DNA from: Octopus vulgaris
Taxonomy: Eukaryota
Assembly (NCBI GenBank): GCA_951406725.2
Contig: OX597819.1
Location: 42,470,001-42,534,000, forward strand
Direction: 5' to 3'
Length of the DNA: 64,000 nucleotides
Positions within the stretch are counted from its first letter, which is position 1, and each line of letters starts with the position of its first letter. Below the pieces are notes generated by a model that was not told the origin of the DNA, ran no database searches, and saw only the letters and a program-made list of their open reading frames with translations. Positions 5,438 to 61,469 of this stretch are shown here, piece by piece. The position numbers and the translations under genes are program-made.

Positions 5438-5830
5438 GTGTATATATGTATATATGTATCTGCATGTGTGTGTGTAGTGTTTCCGTGAAGGTTTGTGTAT
5501 GTGTGAACGTCTGTGCGTTGGGCGTCTTGTATACGTGCGTTTGTATCTATGTGTATGTGTGTTTGGGTGAGGTTTAGGGTTAGGGCAATAGGGTTAGTTG
5601 TCTCTCTGACTCTCGTACACGATAACTTCGACATAGGTCCACATTGTTCGTCTTACGGCTGCTACTCGTCTTTCACTTTGTCGCCTCCATCTCTGAACTT
5701 TACTCTTTTCTTTTCTAATAAGTCTTGTTCCTTTCGTGAAGTAGAAAACATCTTGTTATATTAGTAACAAATATTCAATCAAGCCCTATTCCCTAATACA
5801 ATAGCAGGGATGTAACCAAGGAAGGCAACA

Positions 5831-6055
5831 TGTAGTTATTCTACTGTTTACCATAGGATATAGCGATTTCCTGTTACACGTATTTGTGAAGATATTATGT
5901 TTACATTATGAAAAGGACTAGTGGTTACATGATAACATCCGTTGTCGCATAAGGAGAAGATATTGCTGATATCTCCTGTCATTTATGTGTGGTTCAAAAG
6001 TTTTTTTCGACCTTGTTTGTGAGATTAAGAAGTAAAGAAATGGTGGTTAAAGAAA
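5831..6055 (+). repeat. 3' LTR (truncated) of the Gypsy element
   Basis: Purine-rich AAGGAAGGCAACA precedes TGTAG; contains the direct repeat of 2941-3076. Confidence 0.6.
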
Positions 6056-6079
6056 TATCTATATATAAATATATATATA

Positions 6080-6435
6080 TACTAGCAGTATCGCCCGGCG
6101 TTGCTCGGGTTTGTAAGGGAAATAACTATATAAGCATTTTTAGAGAGTTATAGCAAAAAATGCATTAAAAATGGAACAAAAAATGATGGTAAATTTTTTT
6201 TTAAATCGTTGACTCAGTGTCTTCAAGCCATGAAGTCGTTGTTCTAAAAGAACGCTGGTCTCCTTGACAACGCTTTACGACGTTGATTTCCTTACACTCC
6301 CTTCCCCACAGCTTCACGAGGGAGGGAAGAAGGGGAAGCAACGCAGGTGCAGCTGTGACCATGGACGCCAACTCCGCCGCCATCGACACACGAAAAATTA
6401 TGCATTAAAATGGAATAAAAAATGATGTTAAATTA
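6080..6435. mobile_element. Helitron/Helentron-like non-autonomous fragment
   Basis: Terminus ACTAGCAGTATCGCCCGGCGTTGCTCGGG (CTAG plus GC hairpin) next to (TA)n. Confidence 0.5.
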
Positions 6436-12386: not shown

Positions 12387-12420
<34 letters not shown>

Positions 12421-12779
12421 GTTCATATACATATAAGTATATATATGAGAGGTACTGGTATCTAGAAGACCCAATGAGTGGCAGGTAAGGCTAAGGAAGT
12501 GCAATGGACAGACCCTAGTTAAACTCTTGGTTCGATAGTGATATGAGTGAGGAGTTTAATGTGGGTCTTGTATTAGTCTGAGCATGCATGTGTATGTATA
12601 TATGTGTGTGTTTAAATGTATGCATATATGCACATGCATATGTACATGTTTGTGCACATATGTCATTATACCTTCTTTCTTCCTTTCTGATTCCTACCCA
12701 TCACATACGTTTATTTACAGAAATTTGACATCCTTGTATTCTTCCTTCCTTTTAAATTTTACTACTACATGCATGGTTG

Positions 12780-13216
12780 GGATCTTTTCGGTTTGAATGA
12801 CAGTTTTTAAAGTAATTTCCATGTAACTAAACACTTTTAAACTTCGTATACTGGTAGAATGTGTTTATAAAACATCTTTTTCTCTGGGCTTTATTGAGAA
12901 AATTCTATAGTTTGTAAGATATTTGTTGTTTTTTTTTCTTCAATTTCTGCAATTTCAACCAATCAATGACGTCTATTGAGGTAAAAAAACATTCTGTGCC
13001 ATATGAATATGTCCCTTGTTTAAGAAACAGATTGGGTTTATTTACATTTCTGAAGAAAAAAAGATACCCTCCCCCCACCCCTAACCCTAATCCTAAATGA
13101 CCAACCCTAACCCTAAAACAGATTGAAATGCAATAGATCGATACTAGGGTCATAATTATTGGTGACAATTTCATATGACACCGCTAGAAAAAACTGCCAT
13201 TCAAACCGAAAGATCC
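12780..13216. mobile_element. MITE with GGATCTTTTCGGTTTGAA TIRs and 8-bp TSD; duplicate at 24168-24604; partial copies near 31700-31920, 33360-33505, 48040-48195 and 63851-64000
   Basis: TIR pair with TSD CATGGTTG at 12772-12779 and 13217-13224. Confidence 0.85.
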
Positions 13217-13504
13217 CATGGTTGTACTAATGGCATCAAAAAGGGCTCATGCTTCCCACACCATTACCGTAAGCTTTATTCCAAACAACGATCGGTGGTG
13301 CTCTTTCAGTTAATTTTGTGGGGAAACTTGTGGCGCAGTAATTCCTCTCCTCATTTCCCACCTTGCAACACATCGCTATGTACCTAGTTTGGCCACATCG
13401 TTAACACACTAACATTGTATTTGGTTCCATGTATTCCCTAAGCATGTACAGAATGCAACATCTAAAGCATTTGTGCCTGACCCATATGCCTCGGGAGTAA
13501 GGTA

Positions 13505-13610
13505 CAACGGTTTGCCTCCTTTAACGACCAATCCAAAATCTTCTCCTCACTCTGGTTTGAAATTTGTCTTCCTCTTCATATTTTTGTTTCTTACAAGATG
13601 AGGATGCCTT
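13505..13610 (-). mobile_element. hAT (SPIN/Buster-like) transposase N-terminal relic; duplicate near 24890-24995
   Basis: Frameshifted KKQKYEEE..FKPE*GEDFGLVVKGGKPL resembles the start of GTF2IRD2/SPIN-type transposases. Confidence 0.4.
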
Positions 13611-22770: not shown

Positions 22771-25700
22771 TATATATATATAGGTGAGGGTCTAACTTGA
22801 CCCTGCCTGAGATTTGAAACCAAATCCACTGGCTTGTTGCTTGTCAAATCCACAACACTAGTTGATTGATGAGGAAACACTCCACACCCTAGGACCTGTA
22901 CTGGTCAAGGAAAGGTCAGACCTTTGTTTAAGGTTTGACCTACATTACTAAACATAGCCTATATAACAGAGAATTTTCTATCTGTTTCTCTTATGCCTCA
23001 GGTAAACAAATAGATATATGTAAATAACACTTCTTGGTGTTAATTCTTCCATGTTCACTGGTTACTTTGATGTCAGAACCTTGAAGTGTTATATATGTAC
23101 ACTACATTTAGTTGTGGGCTATTTCATATTGATTGATATGGCACATCACATCCAGTCCACTACATATATATACACATATATATGTATACATACATATATA
23201 TGTATGTATACATAAAGGCGGCGAACTGGCAGAAACGTTAGCACGCCAGGTGAAATGCTTAGCCGTATTTCGTCTGCAGTTACGTTCTGGGTTCAAATTC
23301 CACCGAGGTCGACTTAGCCGTTCATCCGTTTGTCTGTCCTTGTTTGTCCCCTCTGTGTTTAGCCCTTTGCGGGTAGTAAAGAAATATATGTATATATACA
23401 CACTCTCTTCTACATGTTTCAGTCATTTGACTGCAAACATGCTGGAGCACTGCCTTTAGTCGAGCAAATCGACCCCAGGACTCATTCTTTGTAAGCCTAG
23501 TAGTTATTCTATCGGTCTCTTTTGCCAAACCTCTAAGTTACACGGACATAAACACACCACCATCGATTGTCAAGCAATGTTGGTGGTCAAACATAAACAC
23601 GCACATACATATATATATATACATATATACAACAGGCTTCTTTCAGATTCTGTCTACCTAATCCACTCACAAGACTTTGGTCGGCCCGAGGCTATAGTAG
23701 AATACACTTGCCCAAGGTGCCATGCAGTAGGAACAAACCCAGAACCATGTGGTTGGAAAGCAAGCAACTTACCACACAGCCACTCCTGTGCCTACATATA
23801 TATATATATATATATATATGTTCATATACATATAAGTATATATATATGAGAGGTACTGGTATCTAGAAGACCCAATGAGTGGCAGGTAACGCTAAGGAAG
23901 TGCGATGGACAGACCCTAGTTAAACTCTTGGTTCGATAGTGATATGAGTGAGGAGTTTAATGTGGGTCTTGTATTAGCCTGAGCATACATGTGTATGTAT
24001 ATATGTGTGTGTTTAAATGTATGCATATGTACATGTTTGTGCACGTATGTCATTATACCTTCTTTCCTCCTCTCTGATTCTTACCCATCACATACGTCTA
24101 ATTTACAAAAATTTGACATCCTTGTATTCTTCCTTCCCTTTAAATTTTACTACTACCTGCATGGTTGGGATCTTTTCGGTTTCAACGACAGTTTTTAAAA
24201 TAATTTCCACATAACTAAACACTTTTAAACTTCGTATACTGGTAGAATGTGTTTATAAAACATCTTTTTCTCTGGGCTTTATTGAGAAAATTCTATAGTT
24301 TGTAAGATATTTGTTTTTTTTTTTCTTCAATTTCTGCAATTTCAACCAATCAATGACGTCTATTGAGGTAAAAAAACATTCTGTGCCATATGAATATGTC
24401 CCTCGTTTAAGAAACAGATTGGGTTTATTTACATTTCTGAAGAAAAAAAGATACCCTCCCCCCCACCCCTAACCCTAATCCTAAATGACCAACCCTAACC
24501 CTAAAACAGATTGAAATGCAATAGATCGATACTAGGGTCATAATTATTGGTGACAATTTCATATGACACCGCTAGAAAAAACTGCCATTCAAACCGAAAG
24601 ATCCCATGGTTGTACTAACGGTATCAAAAAGGGCTCATGCTTCCCACACCATTACCGTAAGCTTTATTCCAAACAACGATCGGTGGTGCTCTTTCAGTTA
24701 ATTTTGTGGGGAAACTTGTGGCGCAGTAATTCCTCTCCTCATTTCCCACCTTGCAACACATCACTATGTACCTAGTTTGGCCACATCGTTAACACACTAA
24801 CATTGTATTTGGTTCCATGTATTCCCTAAGCATGTACAGAATGCAACATCTAAAGCATTTGTGCCTGACCCATATGCCTCGGGAGTAAGGTACAACGGTT
24901 TGCCTCCTTTAACGACCAATCCAAAATCTTCTCCTCACTCGGGTTTAAAATTTGTCTTCCTCTTCATATTTTTGTTTCTTACAAGATGAGGATGTCCTCT
25001 TCCTTTGCAAATTTTTTCACTGATACCTTGTAAATGAAATTTCTGTCCAAAGTCTACCAAATAGATTCGTAAAGTTGAACGGTCTGTATTTCACTGGCAC
25101 TCGGTCAGTTGCGACGATACAGTTTCCAGTTGATACATTCAACCGAGCAGCCTGCTCATGGAATTAACGAGCAAGTGGCTGAGCACTCCACATAGACATG
25201 TAACCTTCCCACCCCCTTTAATCTCATATGCATTTCGATATCGGAGATCACAATTTTGGTCAAAAAACACGTTTTCAAAATATCAATTTCCCCTGCTCCA
25301 CCCCAATTTTTTTCATTCTTACTCTCTGGCTGAGCAACATGTCCTTCAGAATCTGATTTCTGGGCAATTGCCAAGATATCTATTTAATAGTTTTTTTTCC
25401 ATCATCGCTGCTGGCCGAATTAATTTCCACCCATCACACTCATTTCCTTACCAGTGGAATAATTTGTACTGACCGACCATGAGATGTGCTGAAGGATTTA
25501 CTTTGTCTTCTTATCATGTGTGTGTGTATATATATTTATATATATGTGGAGGCACAGTGGTTAGAGCAGCGGACTCGCGGTCGTAGGATTGCAGCTTCGA
25601 TTCCCAGACCGGGCGTGGTGAGTGTTTATTGAGCAAAAACACCTAAAAAGCACCATTAGGCTCCGGCAGGCAATGGTGGCGATCCCTGCTGTACTCTTTC

Positions 25701-28107: not shown

Positions 28108-29601
28108 TCACACTTGTGTGTGTATACTCTTATGTCTACTTAAGTGGGATTTCCGTGAGAATGATTTACCACAGATATCACACTGATAAGGTCTCTCCCC
28201 TGTATGAACAGGCTGATGTCTAGTTAAGACACCTCCTTCAGAGAATGATTTGCCACAGATATTACACTGATATGGTTTCTCTCCTGTATGAATACGCTTG
28301 TGAACAGTTAACTTGCAACTTTGAGAGAATGATTTGCCACAGATATCACAAGGATATGGTTTCACTCCTGTATGAATGCGCTTGTGTCTAGTCAGGTGAC
28401 TTTTAGTAGTGAAAGATTTACCACAGATATTACAATGATATGGTGTCTCTCCTGTATGTGTACGCTTGTGAACAGTTAAATTGCTATTTTCAGAAAACGA
28501 TTTACCACAGATATCACAGTGATATGGCTTCTCTCCTGTATGAATACGTCTATGTTTAGACAAGTTTCTATTACAAGGAAATGAGTTACCACAGATATCA
28601 CAATAATATGGTTTCTCTCCAGAGTGAACGCGCTGGTGATTACTTAAGCCACTACTCTGAGAGAATGATTTGTCACATATATCACAGTGATATGGTTTTT
28701 CTCCAGAATGAATACGCTTATGATTAGCCAAGTGACTATTAGAAGGGAATGATTTACCACAGTTATCACAACGATATGGTTTCTCACCCGTATGAACACG
28801 CTTGTGAATAGTTAAACTGCCATTTTCAGAGAATGATTTGCCACAGATATCACAAGGATATGGTTTCACTCCTGTATGAACAGGCTCATGATTAGTCAAC
28901 TGACTTTTAAAAGTGAATGATTTACCACAGATATTACAGTGATACGGCTTCTCTCCTGTATGAATACGCTTGTGACTAGTTAAATTGCAATTTCCAGAAA
29001 ACGATTTTCCACAGATATTACAGTGATACGGCTTCTCTCCTGTATGAATACGTTTATGTTTAGACAAGTTGCTACTACAAAAGAATGATTTACCACAGAT
29101 ATCACAATGATATGGCTTCTCACCCGTATGAATACGTTTATGATCAGACAAGTGGCTACTACAAGAGAATGATTTACCACAGATATCACAGTGATATGGC
29201 TTCTCACCTGTATGAATACGTGTGTGCCTTTTTAAGTGACTGGCATCAGAAAATGATTTACCACAGATCTTACAATGATATGGCTTCTCTCCTGTATGAA
29301 TGCGTTTATGACTAGTTAAAGTGCTCTTTTCAGAAAAAGATTTATCACACAAATCACAATGATATGGTTTTTCCCCAGTATGGCTACGTCTGTGACTAGT
29401 CAAGTGACCAATTCTAGAGAATGATTCACCACAGATATCACACTGATATGGCTTCTTCCCTGTATGTATACGTTTGTGAATGGTGAAGTGAGTTCTTCGA
29501 GAGAATGATTTTCCACAGACATCACAGGAATATGGTTTCTCTCTTGTATCAGGGTTTTTAGATTTTATTAAATTACTCATTCTGAGAGAATAATTTCTCA
29601 T
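28108..29601 (-). CDS. ZNF-B: C2H2 zinc-finger protein, 17 fingers
   Basis: Uninterrupted finger array ending HTQV*; ATG at 29601 or 29580; acceptor at 29982. Confidence 0.92.
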   Translation of the reverse strand: MRNYSLRMSNLIKSKNPDTREKPYSCDVCGKSFSRRTHFTIHKRIHTGKKPYQCDICGESFSRIGHLTSHRRSHTGEKPYHCDLCDKSFSEKSTLTSHKRIHTGEKPYHCKICGKSFSDASHLKRHTRIHTGEKPYHCDICGKSFSCSSHLSDHKRIHTGEKPYHCDICGKSFFCSSNLSKHKRIHTGEKPYHCNICGKSFSGNCNLTSHKRIHTGEKPYHCNICGKSFTFKSQLTNHEPVHTGVKPYPCDICGKSFSENGSLTIHKRVHTGEKPYRCDNCGKSFPSNSHLANHKRIHSGEKPYHCDICDKSFSQSSGLSNHQRVHSGEKPYYCDICGNSFPCNRNLSKHRRIHTGEKPYHCDICGKSFSENSNLTVHKRTHTGETPYHCNICGKSFTTKSHLTRHKRIHTGVKPYPCDICGKSFSQSCKLTVHKRIHTGEKPYQCNICGKSFSEGGVLTRHQPVHTGERPYQCDICGKSFSRKSHLSRHKSIHTQV

Positions 29602-30614
29602 ATATATCACAAAGATATTGTTTTTTCATTTCTATGAATATTTTTGTGTTCAGTTCAGTTCCTATTTTCAGGGAATAATTTAATGCTATGTTTTTCAGCT
29701 CTGATCTTACTTAATATCTAAATTAGCAGGTGAAAACTGTCAAGTCCTTCGTAAAGTTATTCAACTTCTAAAGCAATCACCTCCTCTACATTCCAGACAG
29801 TGAAGACAAGAAAAATATTTCGCCGTTGTTTGACATAGATTATATCAATATAAAAAGGGCGATGTATTGATGAAGGCTCCTTATAAATATATCATCTTCC
29901 TTTAGTCAATAAAAGTTGATAAAACTATCAAAGGTACATCTCAATGAAGAAATTTCTTTCAGTTCAACAAGGTGGGATATTCTGAAATAAGAAAAGAAGC
30001 AGTAAGATAACGAGTGAAAGATAAATGATATAGTAATTCAACATTGCAAATATTACAGGATCAACACTGTCATTCATTTAATGCCTAGTTTCACATGGGT
30101 CAGAATTCACTGAGGTGTTGAAAGACTGGTATGCCTAAACATCTAAAACCACCACTGAAAAGTTTTGTTTTTTAATGAAACCCACGTTTTCGGCTATGGA
30201 GATTACAATTCTGAAAAATAATTCTTTTAAGAACTTGCAAAATCCCGATTTCAAAATTTCAATTACCCACACCCATTTCTTCACTTTTCACTATCTTCAG
30301 AAGTTTTTGGGGGAGAAAATACTTAGAGAAATACGGAGCTTATGATTCTGAAAAAATTTGGTTGCAAAATTTCAACTTTTCAGGAAAAACAAAAAATTAC
30401 AAGAACCTCCTGCACTCCCGAGTCTACGGCCTACTAGCAGGCTACACACATGCTAGAAATAACAGCCAAATCAAACAAAAACTCTTAGGCATTTTTGTAC
30501 ATACTCTGTATCGATTGCTCTGCTCTATCAATCTGTGCCTAACCCTTGGATAACATTGGTGGCATTGAAAGGCTAGACTGGTATGCATAGGTCACTGCGG
30601 TTCTTCAATAAACA

Positions 30615-31221
30615 GGTACTACTAGCGAAGACTGGACACGGTCCGCACTAGCTAGTCGTAAGTAATCGATCCTACAATGACTTGCGCGTATGCAAATGAG
30701 TTGTGTTGTAGGTTGGAAGACAACCAATGGATCTAATTAATGATCAAGACGTGGGGGGGGGTTAGTGTAAATAAACAAACAAGAAAATATGCGCACATAC
30801 ACACACACATATATATATACTCACATACACACACACACATATATATATATATAATGATGTACCTACTATGGATGCTGTCCAAAAACTAAAAACTAGTAAA
30901 AGAATATATCACACATAAACACATATATAATATCTATTTGTATCGGTGTGTATACACACACACACATGATTAAAAATTAAGAATATGAAAACTAAAAGAA
31001 TATATCACACACATTTTATTTGATTTGTATAAAAAAATCATATACATTGTTCTAAGAAATAATTTATTTACTTTTTTTTTTAAATTCTTTTATTCTATTC
31101 TGTAAAATCAACTCATTTGCATACGCGCAAGTCGTTGTAGGATCGACTACTTACGACAAGCTAGCGCGGACGCGCGACTGTGCGTGTGCGAGCACCGGGT
31201 CCAGTCTTCGCTAGTAATACC
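30615..31221. mobile_element. GGTACTACTAG-TIR MITE (Merlin/MULE-like); family members at 31578-31700, 32265-32587, 32841-33604, 44237-44919 and 60845-61353
   Basis: TIRs GGTACTACTAGCGAAGACTGGA / TCCAGTCTTCGCTAGTAATACC; the family makes 9-bp TSDs. Confidence 0.8.
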
Positions 31222-31299
31222 CAATTTTAATTTTGTTGATCCGTTGCAAGACGTTGCGGCATTCTGGTAAAAACAGGAGAGAATACATTGTCAGATGGT

Positions 31300-31520
31300 A
31301 CTTACTGTGAGAAGGGCCTCGCGACACCATGTGTTGGGAGTCGAAGCAAAGAGAGCCAGCAGCATCAGTTCTAGGGCAGTGAGGGACCTGACTTGCCAAA
31401 AGGAAAAGAGGAACAGTTAGGGCTATTGAGTTCCTTTATACGTCTTTCATAATTTCCATTAAAAGCTGTTGTGCTTTGCACATGCGTCGTCGCTGCCTGA
31501 TTTGTCTCTTTCCGGTTTTT
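31300..31520 (-). promoter_or_regulatory. Type-B (TATA + TCT/TOP-like) promoter and exon 1, facing ZNF-B
   Basis: Reverse complement of 43815-44033: CCGGAA, TATAAA (31435-31440), CCTCTTTTCCT (31401-31411), donor GTAAGT (31300-31305). Confidence 0.55.
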
Positions 31521-32020
31521 TTTTATGTTTAGCCCTGAGACAATCCAAGGAGACACGACGAGAATGCTACGTTGTTGGGTACTACTTGAGAACAGGGGTC
31601 CCGGTGCGCGCACTTGCGTACACGCGCTTGTTAGTCGTGACTAGTCGATCCTTACTTTGTGTTTTTGTGTGGCATTTTACTTTATTAAAAAAATTATTGG
31701 ATGTTTTCGGATTGACCGGCAGATTTTTAAAATTATTTCTACGTAACTAAAAAATTTTAAACCTCGTAAGATCTTCAAAATTTTTTAGTTACCTAGAAAT
31801 TATGTTAAAAACTGCCGTTCAAACCGAAAAGATCCACCTCGTATACTGGTAGAATGTGTTTATAAAACATCTTTTTCTCTTGGTGTTCTTGGGAAAATTC
31901 TATGGTTTGTAAGATATTTGGTCTTAATTATTTAAATTATAGATTAGGGTATCTACGAGATACCACCGTGCTGAAAATAGCAGCCATGATCCGACTCTAA
32001 GGTGGTTTCTAGCGCGTAGA

Positions 32021-32150
32021 GCCATCTCGGGGAGAATCGGAGAAATTTAATCGTTTAAAGGGGAATAACTTTTACAGCAGTGGAAAATTTAAATATTCCT
32101 GGTGATTTAATATCGGGCACTGATGCATGAGAATACGGTAAGTTGATAAA
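32021..32150 (+). promoter_or_regulatory. Diverged type-A promoter and exon 1, facing ZNF-C
   Basis: GCCATCT..TTTAAAGGGGAATAACT..GAATACG|GTAAGTTGATAAAGATT (donor at 32138). Confidence 0.5.
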
Positions 32151-32637
32151 GATTTATTTTAAGGTTGTAATAAGAAAAAGTAACATTAAGGTAATTTCCT
32201 ACATGATGTTCGTAAAATGATATAAAAATGTGATCTCAAAACGTATATTTCATTAAAACATTTCGGTACTACTAGTGAACAGTGGTCTCGGTGGGCGCAG
32301 TCGCGCTATCTAGTCGTAAGTAGTCGACCCTAGAACGGCTACCTAGAAAAGTAAATAAAACACAAAATAAATAAATTTTGTAAACAAAATAAATAATTTT
32401 TTTAAACGAAGTAAATAATTTTTGTTAAACAAAGTAAATATAACACAAAAACAAGAAGTAAATAATTCTTTAAACAAAGTAAATAAAACACAAAAACAAA
32501 GTAAGGATCGACTAGTCATGACTAGCTGGCTGCGGATGCGCGAGTACGCGAGAGCGCGCACCGGGACCACTGTTTGCTAGTAGTACCTTAAAATTGTTTT
32601 TGGTCCTATTTAGTGAATCTTTATTCTTCATTTACGG

Positions 32638-32834
32638 CAGTGCTTTTCAAACTTTTTGCTGAAGCGGAACCCCAAGGAAACATTCCACTGGCTCGAGGAA
32701 CCCCTGTGCAATGATTTAATAGTCTTATGCACACATATCTGCACAGGAGAATTAAAAATTACTGCCGATTTTAGCAGTTTTGTAACTTCTTGCGGAACCC
32801 TAAGGTTCCGTGGAACCCTGGTTGAAAACCACTG
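32638..32834. mobile_element. hAT-type MITE
   Basis: CAGTGCTTTTCAA / TTGAAAACCACTG ends; 8-bp TSD ATTTACGG at 32630-32637 and 32835-32842. Confidence 0.9.
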
Positions 32835-32840
32835 ATTTAC

Positions 32841-33604
32841 GGTACTACTTAAGAAGAGTGATCAGTACTACTAGCGAACAGTGGTCCCGGTGCGCGCATC
32901 CGCGCTAGCTAGTCGTGACTAGTCGATCCTACAACGACTACCTAGCAAAGTAAATAAAACCCAAAATAAATCATTTTTGTTAAACAAGGTAAATAAAACA
33001 GGGCGATCTTACGGTGTAAGTACCAGATACATTTCAAAAAAGTGTTTTTTTTTTATATATGGGGGGTTAGGGTATGTGGCGATGCTTCGGTATATGTACA
33101 CACGTGACTTTGTTTACATTTCTGAAGATAACAGAAACCCTTTTCTCCTACCCCTAACCCATATATATAAAAACACTTTCTCGAAATGTATCCGGTACTT
33201 ACACCGAAGTTATGCCAAACACAATTTAAATAAAACACAAAAACACAAAGTAAGGATCGACTAGTCCGCACCGGGACCACTGTTCTCATGTAGTACCGAG
33301 TGGTCCCGGGGCGCGCACTCGCGTATCCGCGCTAGCTAGTCGTGACTAGTCGATCGTTACTTTGTTTTACAAACTATAGAATTTTCTCAATAAAGCCAAG
33401 AGAAAAAGATGTTTTATAAAAACATTCTACCAGTATACGAAGTTTAAAAGTGTTTAGTTACGTGGAAATTATTTTTAAAAAACTGCCGCTCAAACCGAAA
33501 AGATACATTATTTATTTTGTGTTTTATTTACTTTGCTAGGTAGTCGTTGGATCGACTAGCCAGCGCGAGTGTGCGCACCGGGACCACTCTTCTTAAGTAG
33601 TACC
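32841..33604. mobile_element. Composite GGTAC-TIR MITE with 9-bp TSD and nested MITEs
   Basis: GGTACTACTTAAGAAGAGTG / CACTCTTCTTAAGTAGTACC; TSD TTCATTTAC at 32627-32635 and 33605-33613; empty site near 44132. Confidence 0.85.
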
Positions 33605-35550
33605 TTCATTTACATGTAACCCACGTCTAATCACCATATTACCAACCAAACAATGAAGACAATCATATACCCACTAAAACTCATCCTCTGCTGGTCTTTT
33701 ATTATGCTAGAAATAGCAGTCATCACATGGCTTTTATCCTAAGACCTGTAGCATGACAAAGAAAGCTATCTGTAGTTTTAGGTACATGTATTTGCTTTCA
33801 AACCAAGTGGTCCTGTGTTGACCCACACTATGTGGCATCTCGACAAAGTGCCTTCTACTATAGCCCTGGGCCAACTGAAGCCTTATCCTCATGGAGGCGA
33901 TGTTCTTTCTTTCCAATATTCTGTGTAAATATGTTTGGACTTGGTGGAATATCATTTTACTTGGAAACAGATGAGGATTGGCAACAAGAAGGGCATCCAG
34001 CTGTAGAATATCTGCCTCAAGCTCGGAAGAGGGGATGTTAAAATGCTGACAATGATGATGGTCTTGTTCAGTAAAAGAGCTTTTACATAGATCACACAAG
34101 CTGCTGGAAATAGCAGCCAAATATTTCTCTAAATTATAAATAAAGGATATTGAACCATGTATTTGCTTTCAAAGCAAGTGGTCCTGTGTTCATCCCCACT
34201 ATGAGGCATCTAGACAAAGTGCCTTCTACTATAGACCTGGGCCAACTAAAGCCTTATGAGGGAATTTGGTGCATGGAAACTTTCATTCCTACAATTATGT
34301 GTGTGTCTTTGTGTTAGAAGTAACATGCAAATGGCTGCGTGTTCTACAGACATGTGGACCCTTAACATAGTCCTCAGGAGCATCCAGCATGACATACAAT
34401 ACGACAAGGATGGCCCTTTGAATTACAGCTGCAACGTATTTTTGCCAGCTGAGTGGACTGGAGCAATGTGAAATAAAGTGCCTTGGGGACACAGTGTGTC
34501 ACTGGGTATCAGACTCACAGCCTTGCCCTAACCATTAGACCATGCCACTTTACAGGGGAAACAATTTAAAGCAAAGAAACAATGAGGAAAATATAAATAA
34601 ATAGGCATAGGAGTGGCTGTATGGTAAGTAGCTTGCTTACCAACCACATGGTTTCGGGTTCAGTCCTACTGCATGGCACCTTGGGCAAATGTCTTCTACT
34701 ATAGGCCCGGGCTGACCATTGCCTTGTGAGTGGATTTGGTAGACGGAAGCTGAAAGAAGCTCGTCGTATATATGTGTATATATATATGTATGTGTTTGTC
34801 CCCGCAACATCGCTTGACAACCAATGCTGGTGTGTTTACGTCCACGTAACTTAGTGGTTTGGAAAAAGAGACCGATAGAATAAGTACTAGGATTACAAAG
34901 AATAAGTCCTGGGGTCGATTTTCTCGACTAAAGGCAGTGCTCCAGCATGGCCGCAATCAAATGACTGAAACGAATAAAAAAAAAATAGAGAAATGTAAAA
35001 ACAATTCACCCATGGACAAAATGTTGAAAAAGTTTCAATGTCTCAATGGATTCTGGTCCGTACAAACGTAGACATTTAATGGATGAAAGTTAATGTAATG
35101 TTTGCCATGTTGAATTATTATGTCATTTAACCATCCATCTTCTCTTTTCTTATTGTATCTTTTCCTATTTCAGAATATCACATCCGATGATTTTATTCCG
35201 CATCATCAATTAAAGGAAGACGAGGCATTTACAAAGCACTTTCATCAATAAATCAACTACTTTATATAAGTAAAAATCTATGATAAAGAATTGGAAAATA
35301 TTTCTTCTGGACAATAGAATTAACAGCAACGTTTTCTTGTCTTCACTGTGTGGAATGTAGAGGAGATGATTGCATTACAGGTTAAATAAACTTGATTAAC
35401 TTTACAAAGGACTTGACAGTTTTCATCTGTTTTGGATATTAAACAAAATCAGAGATAAAAAAATATAATATTAAATTATTCTCTGAAAATAGTGACACAA
35501 CTGAATTCTACCGTATTCATTGGAATAAAAAAGACATCTTTGTGTCATGT

Positions 35551-36480
35551 ATGACAAATTATTCTCTTAAAATGAGTAATGTAAATAAACCAAAAATCCC
35601 AGATACAGAAGAGAAGCCTTTCACCGAAGAAAGAGTCTTAACTAAACAGAAATGCATTCAGACAAGGGTGAAACCGTATCACTGTAATGTCTGTGGTAAA
35701 TCATTCTCTCAAAGTATTGTGTTGACCCGTCACGTACGCACGCATACAGGGGAGAAACCATTTCATTGCAATATCTGTGGTAAATCATTTACTCAGAGTG
35801 GTGACTTGATTAAACACAAACCTACACATACAGGAGAGAAACCATTTCATTGTGATATCTGTGGTAAATCATTCTCTAGAAACAGTCAATTGACTAGGCA
35901 CCGACGTGTTCATACTGGGGAAAGACCTCATAAATGTGACATCTGTGGTAAATCATTTTCTGAAACTAGTAAGCTGACTATTCATAAGCGTATTCATACC
36001 GGGGAAAAACCATTTCACTGTGATATCTGTGATAAATCGTTCTCTGAATCGGGTCACCTAAATATACACAAACGTATTCATACGGGTGAGAAGCCGTACC
36101 CTTGTGATATCTGTGGTAAATCATTCTCTCGACGTGGTGACTTGAGTAAACACAAAACTACACATACAGGAGAGAAGCCATATCAGTGTGATATTTGTGG
36201 TAAATCATTTGCTGAAAATAACGCTTTAATTATTCACAAACGTATTCATACAGGAGAGAAGCCATATCATTGTAATATCTGTTGTAAATCTTTCTCTCAA
36301 AAAGGTCACTTGCTTAAACACAAGCGTACACATACAGGAGAGAAAGCATATTTTTGTAGTATCTGTGGATCCTCATTCTCTAGAAATAGTCACTTGACTA
36401 GTCACAAAGGTATTCATGCTGGAGAAAACCCATATCAGTGTGATATCTGTGGTGAGTCATTCTTTCCAAAACGCCACTGA
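35551..36480 (+). CDS. ZNF-C: C2H2 zinc-finger protein, 9 intact fingers plus a truncated last finger
   Basis: Finger array; acceptor at 35172; TGA inside the final finger. Confidence 0.88.
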   Translation: MTNYSLKMSNVNKPKIPDTEEKPFTEERVLTKQKCIQTRVKPYHCNVCGKSFSQSIVLTRHVRTHTGEKPFHCNICGKSFTQSGDLIKHKPTHTGEKPFHCDICGKSFSRNSQLTRHRRVHTGERPHKCDICGKSFSETSKLTIHKRIHTGEKPFHCDICDKSFSESGHLNIHKRIHTGEKPYPCDICGKSFSRRGDLSKHKTTHTGEKPYQCDICGKSFAENNALIIHKRIHTGEKPYHCNICCKSFSQKGHLLKHKRTHTGEKAYFCSICGSSFSRNSHLTSHKGIHAGENPYQCDICGESFFPKRH

Positions 36481-43676: not shown

Positions 43677-43814
43677 AAATTTTTTAAAGGGTGTTTTTGG
43701 GGGGTGACGGTCTTAGAGATGGTATCGAAGTTGACCATGATGAAATCGAGATGTACAACAATGTAGCATTCCCGTCGTGTCCCCTTGGATTGTCTCAGGG
43801 CTAAACATTAAAAA

Positions 43815-44033
43815 AAAACCGGAAGAGACAAAGCAGGTAGCGACGACGCATGTGCAAAGCACAACAGCCTTTAATGGAAATTATGAAAGACGTATAAAGG
43901 AACCCAATTGCCAAGACTGTTCCTCTTTTCCTTTTGGCAAGTCAGGTCCCTCACTGCCCTAGAACTGGTGCTGCTGGCTCTCTTTGCTTCGACTCCCAAC
44001 ACATGGTGTCGCGAGGCTCTTCTCACTGTAAGT
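43815..44033 (+). promoter_or_regulatory. Type-B promoter (ETS-like CCGGAAG, TATA, TCT/TOP-like initiator) and exon 1 of ZNF-D
   Basis: TATAAA at 43893-43898, CCTCTTTTCCTTTT at 43922 (about 30 nt downstream), donor GTAAGT at 44028. Confidence 0.6.
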
Positions 44034-45554
44034 ACCATCTGATAATGTATTCTCTCCTGTTTTTACCAGAATGCCGCAACGAATCAACAAAATTAAAATG
44101 GTTATTGGTCCTATTTAGTGAATCTTTATTCTTCATTTACATTGCAGCCCACGTCTAATCACCACATTACCAACCAAACAATGAAAGCAATCTTATACCT
44201 GCTAAAACATATTCAGAAGTGAGGATAACGAAATTGGGTACTACTAGTGAACAGTGGTCCCGGTGCGCGCACTCGCGCTAGGTAGTCGTAAGTAGTCGAT
44301 CCTACAACGACTTGCGCGTATGTTTGTATTTCAAGGCTGAATACATATCAAAGAAAATTAAATATTTTTCGAACAAAGTAAATAAAATGCAAAGGAAATA
44401 ATTTTTTAAACTAAGTAAATAAATTATTTGGCGATCCTTCGGTATATGTACACACGTGACTTTGTTTACATTTCTGAAGATAACGGAAACCCTTTTCTCC
44501 CACCCTAACCCTCATGCAGACCCCCCCCCCATATATAAAAAAAAAACACTTTCTTGAAATGTATCCGGTACTTATACCGAAGTTATGCCAATTATTTTTA
44601 TAAACAAACTAACGTTAGGTTTAGGGTTTAAAAGTCCTAGGATTGGCTACTTACGTCTAGCTAGTGCGGATGCGCGAGCCCAGCACCGGGACCACAGTTT
44701 GCTAGGAGTATCTATGGTTCTACTAGCAAATAGTGGTCCCGGTGTGCGAACACGCGCATCCGCGCCGGCTCGTCATGGCTAGTCGATCCTTACTTTGTGT
44801 TTTTGTGATATTTACTTTGTTAAAAAAATTATTTACTTTGCTAGGTGGTCGTTGTAGGATCGACTACTTACGACTAGCTTGCGCGTGTGCGCGCACCGGG
44901 ACCACTGTTCGCTCGTAGTATATATATATATATATATATATACACCTTTCTGGTGGTATAGATTACGATTATATCGGAATTTGTTTGGAAAAACTTTTCT
45001 TCTCCCTTTTAAACAAATTCAGCTGAGTGGACTGAGGCAATGTGAAATAAAGTGCCTTGGGGACAGTGTGCCACTGGGTATCAAACTCACAGCCTTACTA
45101 TAACAATTGGACCATGCCACTTCACAGGGGAAACAATTGAAAGCAAAGAAAAAAATGAGGAAAATATAAATATTGCGCCTATAGACAAAATGTTGTAAAA
45201 GTTTCAATGCCTCAATGGATTCTGACCCATGCAAACGTAGACATTAAATGGATGACAGTGTTGATGTTGTAATATTTGCCATGTTGAATTATTATGTCAT
45301 TTAACCATCCATCCTCTCATTATTACTGCATCTTTTCCTATTCCAGAGTATCACATCTGATAATTTTGTTCCGCTTCATTGATTAAAGGAAGGCAAGGAA
45401 TTTACAAAGGACTTGACAGTCTACATCTTCTGTTTTGGATATTCAGCAAGATCGGAGATGAAAGAAACATACCATTAAATTATTCTCTGAAAACAGTGAC
45501 ACAACTGAATGCAAACGCATTCATTGGAATAAAAAAGACATCTTTGTATCATGT

Positions 45555-58363: not shown

Positions 58364-61300
58364 ACATATCACAATGATAGTGTTTATTTCATTTCTGTGA
58401 ACATGTTTGTGTTCAGTTGTGTCATAATTGTCAGAGAAAAAATTAATGCTACATTTCTTTCATCAATGATTTTACTTAAAATCTAAAACAGAAAATGTAA
58501 ACTGTTAACTCTTTCATAAAGTTATTCAACCTCAAACTTTAAAGGAATCATCTCCTCTACATTCCAAATAACGAAAACCAGTAAATGTTGCTGTTAATTA
58601 CATTGTCCAGAAGAAATATTTTCCCATCATTTGTTGAAGATTTTATTTATACAAAAAAGTTGATGCGTTGATGAATGTATGGTCTTCCTTTAATTGATGA
58701 AAGTCAATAAAAATATCAGAGACGTGTCTGAATGAAGGAATTTCTTTAACGTCAACATGATGTGATATTCTGAAATAGAAAAAGAAGCAGTGAGATAAAG
58801 ATAATTATTAAACGACATAGTAATTCAACATTGCAAATATTACAACATCAACACTGTCATCCATTTAATGTCTATGTTTGCATGGGTCAGAATCCATTGA
58901 GGCATTGAAAGTTTTACAACATTCTGTATATAGACGAAGCGTTTCTACATTTCTCTAATTATTTATCTGTTTTCTTTCTCTTCCCTCCTTTCACTTGTTT
59001 CACCTGTGAAGTGGCATGGCTTAGTGGTTAGGGTATTTCACTCACAATTGTAAAGTTGTGAGTTTGATAAACAGTGGTGCAATGAGTCTCCAAGCCATTT
59101 TATTTCACTTTGCATCAGTCCACTCAGGTGTCAAAAATGAGTTTAACCTGTAATTCAAAGGGCCAGTCTTCTCACCATCTGTGCCTCCTTGAAGACTATA
59201 TTAAGGGTCCCCATGTCTGTGGAATGCTCAGCCATTTGCATGTTAATTCCATGAGCAGGCTTTTTAGTTGATTGGATAAACTAAAACACAGAGTGCCAGT
59301 TACTGGTTCACCAAGTGGACCGTAGCCATGCTGGAATACTTCTTTGAAGTGTTCAGTCAAATGAATCAACTCCAGTATATATATTTAAGTTTGATACATA
59401 TTCCACCAGTCATATATGCCCAATCACTAAGTCACAAGGATATAAGCAAACTAATGCCCATAGTAGAAGTGCTTTATGGCAGGAAAGGGAGTCAAACACA
59501 GATACAAACACACATAATTCCGTAAATGATACACTTTCCATGTAGCAAATCCCCTCACAAGGCTTTAGTTGGCCCAGGGCTATAATGGAAGACACTTGGC
59601 CCAGATACCACACAATGGGAATGAACACAAGACCACTTACTTCAAAAGCAAATACATGGTTCAATATACTTTATTTAATATTTCAGAAATATTTGGCTGC
59701 TATTTCTAGCAGCTTGTGCAGCCTATGTAGAAGCTCCTTTACTGAACAGGACCATCATCATTGTCATCGTTTTAACATCTCCTTTTCCATGCTTCATTGG
59801 ATCAGATGGTTTATGTAGAGGCAGATATTCTACAGCTGGATGCCCTTCCTGTTGCCAATCCTCACCTGTTCCCAAGTGAAGTGATATTCCACCGAGTTGA
59901 AACATGTTTACACAGAATATGGGAAAGAAAGGACATAGCTTCCATGATGGTGACAATCATTTACAAGCATCACAGAATGTCAAGAAGACAGAAACACACA
60001 TACATGTATATTTACGTGAGTATATGTGCTGATGCCATGTAAAAAGCATCCCCCCTCCACTCTGTAAAGCGGTTGGCATTAGGAAGGGTACCCAGCTGTA
60101 GAAACCCTGCCAAAGCAGACAGTTATGCTTGGTGCAGTCCTCTGTCTTACCAGCTTCTCTCAAACTGTGAAACACATGCTAGCATGGAAGACAGACAATA
60201 AATGATGATGATGATATATGCAAAACAGTTAACAAGAACCCCACGATACGGAATTCCTGCTGAGATGGAGTGATGGTCACAAATTGGATTTGGTACTTGC
60301 ATATCTATGGTATCCTAAAAGCACTTGAATTTTACAAAGTTGTTTTCTTTTACTGTGAGCTCTGTGTCTTTGTACTGAACCATTTTTCGGGTGTTCTTAC
60401 ACGGGGTTGTGTCTTGATTCTCAAGTCTATTTTCCTGTTTCTGCGGATTGTCTTACTTTTATGATTAATCCCACAGATAAATGTATCTAAAACTAAAGAT
60501 AGCCTTGTTTATCAAACTATAGATCTTAGGATAAAGCCATGTGATGACTGCTAATTCCTGCATACTAAACGACCAGCAGAGGATGAGCTGCTTTTAAATT
60601 TGTTTCAAAGACAGTAGAAAAGTTTATCCCAACAAATTCCGATATAATCGTAATTTATATCTCCGGAAAGGCATTTCAAAAAAAATTTCATCGAAAAACA
60701 ATTATGAGGAAAGAAGACCGAGGTGTGTGAATTATTCGAAACTCTTCTATATCCCACCGTCTCCGAAAAAGTTTTACACAACAAATTCGTATGTAATCGT
60801 AATCTACACAATCTGAAAAGTATTATCATCGTAATCTACATCATGGTACTAGTCGCGCACACTGGACCCGGTGAGCGCACATGCGCAAGCCAGTCGTAGG
60901 TAGTCGATCCTACAGTGACTTGCGTGTGCAAATGAGCTGATTGGCGCAACACTGCAAAAACTAAGTTAATAGCGAGCCCCTACTGAAGCTTAGGAAATAT
61001 TTTTCAACGATATACGGTGTATATTATTTTAAAGACAATTGCGTTTTTTTTTTTCGTTACAAAACAATTAGAAGCATTGAAAAAAAAGCAAAGCAACGTT
61101 AAGGACAGTCAAACATTTTTTTTTCAAAGTAGACCACTACAGGCGACAATTCACTAGTCTACGCGACTTGTACCAACAAATTAAATAAAAATAACACACT
61201 ACGGGTGTAAAAAAATTATTTATCTTGTTTAAAAAAAAAAACATCTATTAATTTGCATATGCGCACTCGCGCTAGGTAGTCGTTATAGGATCGACTAATC

Positions 61301-61469
61301 ACGACTAGCCATCTCGGATGCGCGCACCGGAAGCACTCATCTTAAATAGTACCCCGTTAAAGGTATATGGTGTGCTTGTAATCGATTTTCTGCTCGCCTC
61401 AAACAATGCTGGTCCTGGGCCAAAATTTCAAACCATCATCATCACTATTACTAATATAACCTTAAAGTA

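Follow-up and report, generated by a model that had tools for sequence, protein, structure and literature searches.

ZNF-B and ZNF-C, two divergent zinc-finger genes of Octopus vulgaris, are separated by DNA that carries two predicted first exons and two MITEs, which raises the question of how this DNA came to be arranged as it is and which first exon each gene would use. We analysed a window of 64,000 nucleotides (contig OX597819.1, termed C6 here) that holds six open frames with C2H2 zinc fingers, 2/6 of them confirmed by Pfam. In both genes a single large exon, preceded by a conserved acceptor, contains the coding sequence. The first-pass annotation of the window had proposed that a transposon-generated inversion swapped the promoters of the two genes, with donors GT at 31305 (minus strand) and 32138 (plus strand) and acceptors AG at 29982 (minus strand) and 35172-35173 (plus strand); all of these splice sites are present at these positions (Table 1). 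The predicted donors are upstream of the two breakpoints, which leaves both first-exon modules and both coding exons intact.

Table 1. Features of the ZNF-B/ZNF-C locus and of the unbroken LTR upstream of ZNF-D (window coordinates)
Feature	Position	Strand	Detail
ZNF-B open frame, 17 C2H2 motifs, one large exon	28111..29625	-	
ZNF-B exon 2, predicted acceptor AG	29982..29983	-	sequence; region common to paralogues
ZNF-B first intron, surviving 3' part	30008..30614	-	paralogue L082
MITE1, complete Merlin-type element, 607 bp	30615..31221	+	3' end at 31221; without second copy of own TSD
9-bp target duplication, inverted copy, left breakpoint	31222..31230	-	sequence, flank-pair scan
Solo LTR, 5' part ('promoter B')	31222..31571	-	TATAAA 31440-31435, pyrimidine tract near 31410, donor GTAAGT from 31305
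Older Merlin-type end with nested second MITE family	31578..31920	+	
A-type predicted first exon (donor GT 32138) and intron stub	32016..32264	+	B' lineage, not ZNF-B's
MITE2, complete Merlin-type element, 323 bp	32265..32587	-	5' end at 32587; without second copy of own TSD
9-bp target duplication, second copy, right breakpoint	32588..32596	+	sequence, flank-pair scan
LTR, 3' remainder	32597..33678	+	interrupted by MITE stack and 197-bp element
ZNF-C exon 2, predicted acceptor AG	35172..35173	+	sequence
ZNF-C open frame, 9 C2H2 motifs	35443..36477	+	309 aa from Met common to paralogues
Unbroken solo LTR upstream of ZNF-D	43762..44206	+	single 9-mer 44093-44101

The segment between ZNF-B and ZNF-C is inverted

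The proposed geometry, a reversed left part and a right part that resumes at 32588, was confirmed by self-comparison of the window: 31216-31577 matches 44106-43756 on the minus strand (91.7%) and 32588-32635 matches 44093-44140 on the plus strand (95.8%). The 9-mer CAATTTTAA at 31222-31230 returns in inverted form as TTAAAATTG at 32588-32596. As had been claimed, the two copies abut the ends of two MITEs, and they are the only occurrences in the window. The MITE termini are flush with them, GTAATACC ending at 31221 and GTAGTACC at 32587. We scanned 94 kb (the window and 30 kb of flanks) for such flank pairs, and among the 153 pairs given by 18 family ends this was the sole exact 9-base inverted pair; at the random rate of 58 in 2,000,000, about 0.004 would be expected. 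The same 94 kb held no other split-TSD event for MITEs of the GGTAC family. One inverted flank pair with 1 mismatch was found for a second MITE family and was rejected as two insertions, each with a similar direct TSD.

A paralogous divergent pair of genes, B' and C', is located on contig C29, with C' being 94.8% identical to ZNF-C. Between B' and C' the homologues of 34104-32588 run directly into those of 31224-32264; the counterpart of 31222-32264 has the opposite orientation, the 9-mer occurs once and no MITE is found at either breakpoint. The region upstream of ZNF-D is likewise unbroken. Compared with its paralogue, segment 31222-32587 is thus inverted; the C29 arrangement bears out both the flip and its direction, as originally suggested. 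One orientation of the segment was found on C6. A MITE stack ending at 33604 is common to C and C' and absent from D, so that the inversion is younger than the C/C' split. Both 9-mer copies carry one same base that differs from D and C', as would be expected if one sequence was duplicated. An assembly artefact, in which the segment was placed backwards between two repeats, might be suspected in so repeat-rich a region. However, a mis-join inside repeats gives hybrids and not a new 9-bp inverted duplication in unique sequence, and the shared base that sets both copies apart from both paralogues also speaks against it; we consider such an artefact very unlikely.

The DNA between the two promoter modules is nearly all transposon-derived. 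The older Merlin-type end at 31578-31920 is also present at the C29 paralogues and thus predates the inversion. A reading of 31578-32587 as one composite element that had captured exon A was rejected, as the 31578 end is common to C29 paralogues that do not carry MITE2. Directly upstream of the A-type exon, 31925-32000 is the end of another dispersed element with at least 40 genome matches, many of them inverted pairs. In the LTR remainder, a Merlin-type MITE stack reaches to 33604, and its 9-bp TSD (32627-32635/33605-33613) is interrupted by a later insertion: an element of 197 bp (32638-32834), presumably hAT-like, which has short inverted termini and is flanked by an exact 8-bp TSD, lies two bases inside the left end of the Merlin MITE and is absent from the C29 paralogue. 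Elsewhere in the window, a duplicated repeat block of ~1.1 kb (12387-13561 and 23795-24949) flanks ZNF-A on both sides.

MITE1 and MITE2 are intact elements of a Merlin-type family

MITE1 is colinear from end to end with an intact copy elsewhere in the genome (L135, 81.6%), and the same holds for MITE2 (L052, 84.5%). The arms agree in 24 and 23 of 26 bases within each element and in 20-21 of 26 bases with the other element, and in each of the two the same subfamily tag is found on both arms. MITE1 and MITE2 are non-hybrid, intact elements. No reciprocal TSD was found in a comparison of 30606-30614 with 32256-32264. In MITE1 the transposase-tail sequence points to 31221, and in MITE2 it points to 32265. 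This would make 31221 the 3' end of MITE1 and 32587 the 5' end of MITE2, and would place the elements in direct, facing orientation before the inversion; the assignment depends on tail matches that are AT-rich (66-88%) and involve two partial elements. Today the two MITEs are inverted relative to each other. Patches of 30-155 bases are 70-80% identical between them, and the longest exact common run is 15 bases.

Swapped-looking TSDs are also produced by ectopic recombination. A crossover between two inverted MITEs, one at the 9-mer and one joining 30614 to 32264 after a deletion, would also place the TSD copies on different elements in inverted orientation, and the present inverted arrangement and patchy similarity of MITE1 and MITE2 would suit such an exchange. 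However, it predicts reciprocal hybrids and a second swapped TSD pair. We found elements that are colinear with intact relatives and have matching end tags, and a single TSD pair; the 15-base run and the need for a separate earlier deletion weigh against a crossover as well, and we regard it as unlikely. Staggered double-strand breaks followed by end joining, with the MITEs inserted later at the breakpoints, can be considered too, since such breaks can yield inversions with flanking inverted duplications, as described in the relevant part of PMC8225341. Two later insertions would then have to be exactly flush and both without their own TSDs, and the length of the duplication would have to equal that of the family TSD, which makes this course of events most improbable.

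In a census of MITE2's family we fetched 29 loci, 3 of which had no clean ends. Exact TSDs of 8 bp were found in 5 and of 9 bp in 7 of the 26 scored copies, 21/26 had a TSD within one mismatch at either length, and TSDs of 10-12 bp were seen in 0/26. The earlier claim that the family makes 9-bp TSDs elsewhere in the window rests there on one clear case, that of the interrupted MITE stack; genome-wide, it stands as 8 or 9 bp. Merlin elements are defined by terminal GG, 8- or 9-bp TSDs and TIRs of 24-462 bp in the part of PMC8101967 used here; a five-base end motif associated with Merlin does not occur in that part and was left unused. The present family agrees with the superfamily in its terminal 5'-GG, in TIRs within this range, in its TSDs of 8 or 9 bp and in a DDE_Tnp_IS1595 transposase (PF12762) with the same ends, pieced together from two loci: at L121 a family end stands directly upstream of a decayed PF12762 frame, and at L195 a family end is joined to a homologous 3' tail. 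PF12762 has at least 150 matches in the 2.8-Gb genome. Among 32 of these loci, family arm matches were found in 5 and exact 8-bp TSDs with other TIRs in 5; a complete autonomous partner with both ends was found in none of the 32, and the partners seen there are decayed remnants only. Judged by these characters, the MITE1/MITE2 family belongs to the Merlin type.

Five transposase loci (L185, L186, L198, L199 and L202) represent other Merlin families and have intact TIRs and exact 8-bp TSDs around the transposase match, which suggests recent Merlin activity in the genome. In addition, a Merlin-type MITE end is repeated in tandem together with its flank in the first intron of C' (~13 copies of 37 bp; L003:454-950, C29), and more Merlin-type MITE stacks without matching TSDs are located in the introns of ZNF-D and ZNF-F (window 44237-44922 and 60845-61353).

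'Promoter B' is a split solo LTR

The module named 'promoter B' in the first-pass annotation is present in the inverted segment as proposed, but its nature had been missed: by its sequence it is a solo retrotransposon LTR, which the breakpoint cuts in two. The sequence has 30 genome matches with a sharp common start. At two loci, two direct copies flank frames that match DUF7041 and rve (L127) or RVT_1 (L128), so that paired direct repeats surround retroelement coding remnants; in the Pfam scan of these frames, 3/16 gave matches. After the repeat follows a primer-site-like motif, common to 4 distinct loci, which may match tRNA-Trp. A purine-rich flank and one 4-bp TSD were read by eye.

Solo LTRs are elsewhere used as promoters and first exons. 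The copy studied here is like them in its sense orientation upstream of a gene, its TATA-like box and its strong splice donor; it differs in that promoter activity is predicted and that an inversion afterwards handed the LTR to another gene. All three full gene-linked copies (B, D and C') have TATAAA and a GTAAGT donor. Among 14 dispersed LTR loci (two identical), GTAAGT occurs in 0, GTAGGT in 10 and TATAAA in 1. The three gene-linked LTRs share one ancestor, so that the association counts as one event and has no statistical weight. Between ZNF-C and ZNF-D no A-type donor motif was found, which leaves the LTR as the only candidate of these two types for ZNF-D. Extra conservation of the part from TATA box to donor was not significant (13/147 vs 32/223 variable sites, p 0.14). 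The LTR resembles CsRn1-like Gypsy elements, with which it shares, as far as the relevant part of PMC2582038 describes them, the 4-bp TSD and the primer-site-like motif after the LTR. No report of an octopus case of an LTR-derived zinc-finger promoter was found in the literature covered (mainly open-access, supplements excluded). Three zinc-finger genes of one clade on C29 (L046, L047 and L048) have a truncated version of the same LTR without the donor region upstream, and at L046 an A-type donor lies further upstream of it.

The native promoter of ZNF-B is lost or displaced

The surviving intron of ZNF-B (30008-30614) matches L082 with 90% identity; L082 is free of a MITE at the corresponding point and extends ~1.1 kb further, up to an A-type donor of its own. 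A tree of 22 A-type modules pairs the piece in the window with B' (100/98) and places the donors reached by the sister introns of ZNF-B in another clade (100/99). The outer flanks at 30614 and 32264 thus stem from two different gene lineages, from which it follows that DNA between the elements was lost or displaced. On this evidence the A-type piece belongs to a third gene lineage and not to that of ZNF-B, whose own promoter is lost or displaced, with no A-type promoter of its own nearby. Two parts of the first-pass annotation need correction here: a reciprocal promoter swap between two genes is not supported, as the A-type piece groups with a lineage other than that of the ZNF-B intron, and ZNF-A, named as the paralogue of ZNF-B that uses promoter A, is not its closest paralogue. 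The exon-2 tree does not resolve the order of the 8 rows of the ZNF-B clade.

Most of what is missing from the native intron and promoter of ZNF-B (L082-type sequence, 91% over 990 bases) was found ~43 kb away on C6. This half (L105:9882-10000 and L106:1-854, C6:42543882-42544854; 91% to L108) stands before a different zinc-finger gene and behind stacked MITE ends, and no TSD links it with 30008-30614. It would be a copy from a paralogue, or else the half that was displaced from ZNF-B's own module. It possibly reflects an earlier promoter shuffle, and an earlier rearrangement may explain part of what looks like a deletion. A search of C6 with 487 bases of the B' intron gave dispersed-repeat matches only and none near the window (the query is partly repeat; 40/60 candidates were scored).

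Contig C29 carries duplicated acceptor-side intron pieces and an A-type promoter that is 92.5% identical to that of ZNF-A with no matching gene body adjoining (L108:1129-1265 and 5637-6236; L112:5298-5378 and 5888 onward; L111:1690-2791). These pieces are signs of further module shuffling on C29.

Reversed-ends transposition is the probable source of the inversion

In reversed-ends transposition, as defined in the part of PMC8225341 that concerns us, the facing 5' and 3' ends of two direct elements are used, the DNA up to the target is inverted, a TSD marks the breakpoints and the intervening DNA is lost. The locus fits this definition in its geometry, its TSD, its non-hybrid elements and the lineages of its flanks: the inverted segment reaches from one element to a new target and has an element at both breakpoints, a TSD of family length is divided between the two breakpoints and directly abuts the element termini, a 5' end and a 3' end appear to have been used (from AT-rich tail matches to two partial elements), and intervening DNA is lost, given that the second TSD copies are absent and the flank lineages differ. 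We judge it probable (about 0.75) that the inversion arose from one reversed-ends transposition event. This origin had already been suggested in the first-pass annotation and is now backed by the uninverted paralogue, the non-hybrid elements and the 3'/5' end geometry.

In such an event MITE1 and MITE2 would have been in direct orientation beforehand with their 5' and 3' ends facing, a Merlin transposase would have joined the MITE1 3' end and the MITE2 5' end to a staggered cut inside the solo LTR, and the DNA between the elements would have been cut out. The excised DNA would have included the two lost TSD copies at the least; the body of a B'-like gene was probably part of it, and the native promoter of ZNF-B perhaps also. 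Alternatively, the same chemistry could have drawn the two ends from homologues or sister chromatids, as in hybrid-element insertion, or several transpositions could have followed one another in this cluster; the same junctions would be expected, and with a displaced promoter half 43 kb away there is a hint of multiple events. However, no duplicated flanking segment was found in 94 kb of the contig and a single event in cis is sufficient for the inversion, for which reasons we hold these variants to be quite unlikely.

The outcome of a single reversed-ends event would be a one-time germline scar and not a switch. An invertible switch has identical inverted recombination sites and both orientations; here, the longest exact match is 15 bases and one orientation is present on the contig. 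Re-inversion through the flanking MITEs, which had been considered possible, is not supported and is unlikely because the elements share so little exact sequence. If the inner ends took part in another reversed-ends event, the modules would be deleted and not flipped.

After the inversion ZNF-B would start in the LTR, with a TATA box, an exon of ~105 nt and the donor at 31305, and ZNF-C would start in the A-type exon that remains from the lost gene of B' type, with the donor at 32138. We put the chance that both of these predicted new pairings of promoter and gene are transcribed slightly above even, and an effect on gene regulation is plausible. The ZNF-C branch has 5 nonsynonymous changes against 6 synonymous ones (pN/pS 0.21, p 0.012), and the ratios for D and C' are 0.66 and 0.43. 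The ZNF-C branch looks constrained, more so than D or C'; its low pN/pS may predate the inversion.

Discussion

Inversions that arise by ectopic recombination between transposon copies are reportedly known from Galileo in Drosophila. The octopus locus resembles these in having transposon copies at both breakpoints with exchanged TSDs, but differs in its non-hybrid elements, its single TSD pair and the DNA missing at one junction. Reversed-ends transposition is known mainly from genetic screens and transgenes with Ac/Ds, P, impala and Sleeping Beauty (PMC8225341, in the part drawn on here), and both the mechanism and the re-pairing of parts of paralogous genes have been described in maize (PMC8225341 and PMC1592236, in the parts relevant here). 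The octopus locus agrees with maize Ac/Ds in its two direct class II elements with facing 5' and 3' ends, the inversion from element to target, the TSD split over the breakpoints, the loss of DNA between the elements and the re-paired regulatory and coding parts of paralogous genes. In contrast to Ac/Ds, which are hAT elements, it involves two non-autonomous Merlin-type (IS1595-type DDE) MITEs of different subfamilies; furthermore, it would represent an old natural event in an animal and not a product of a genetic screen, with a target inside a solo LTR.

No report of Merlin elements rearranging DNA by alternative transposition was found in the literature covered, which was mainly open-access with supplements excluded; among the papers listed, a fungal review (PMC6679389) was alone in mentioning both Merlin and alternative transposition. 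The locus is probably a well-preserved scar of a known mechanism in a transposon superfamily for which we found no such report. As a natural scar of Merlin MITEs in an animal genome it would extend reversed-ends transposition to another transposase superfamily.

A wider reading, for which we see some grounds but which we consider doubtful, is that Merlin MITEs accumulated in the first introns of this C2H2 zinc-finger family work as a promoter-shuffling machine. It starts from the fact that the whole protein is encoded in exon 2. If true, alternative transposition would repeatedly re-pair interchangeable first-exon modules, one of them LTR-derived, with intact coding exons; the present locus would represent a single clean case among repeated events, with a second, displaced promoter half 43 kb away, and a mechanism would be given for the regulatory switching predicted among cephalopod C2H2 paralogues. 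That prediction, made for C2H2 duplicates in PMC12513265, comes with no rearrangement mechanism in the part of that study considered here. The inversion would offer a concrete route for it: ZNF-B and ZNF-C should each show the expression of the module that they now face.
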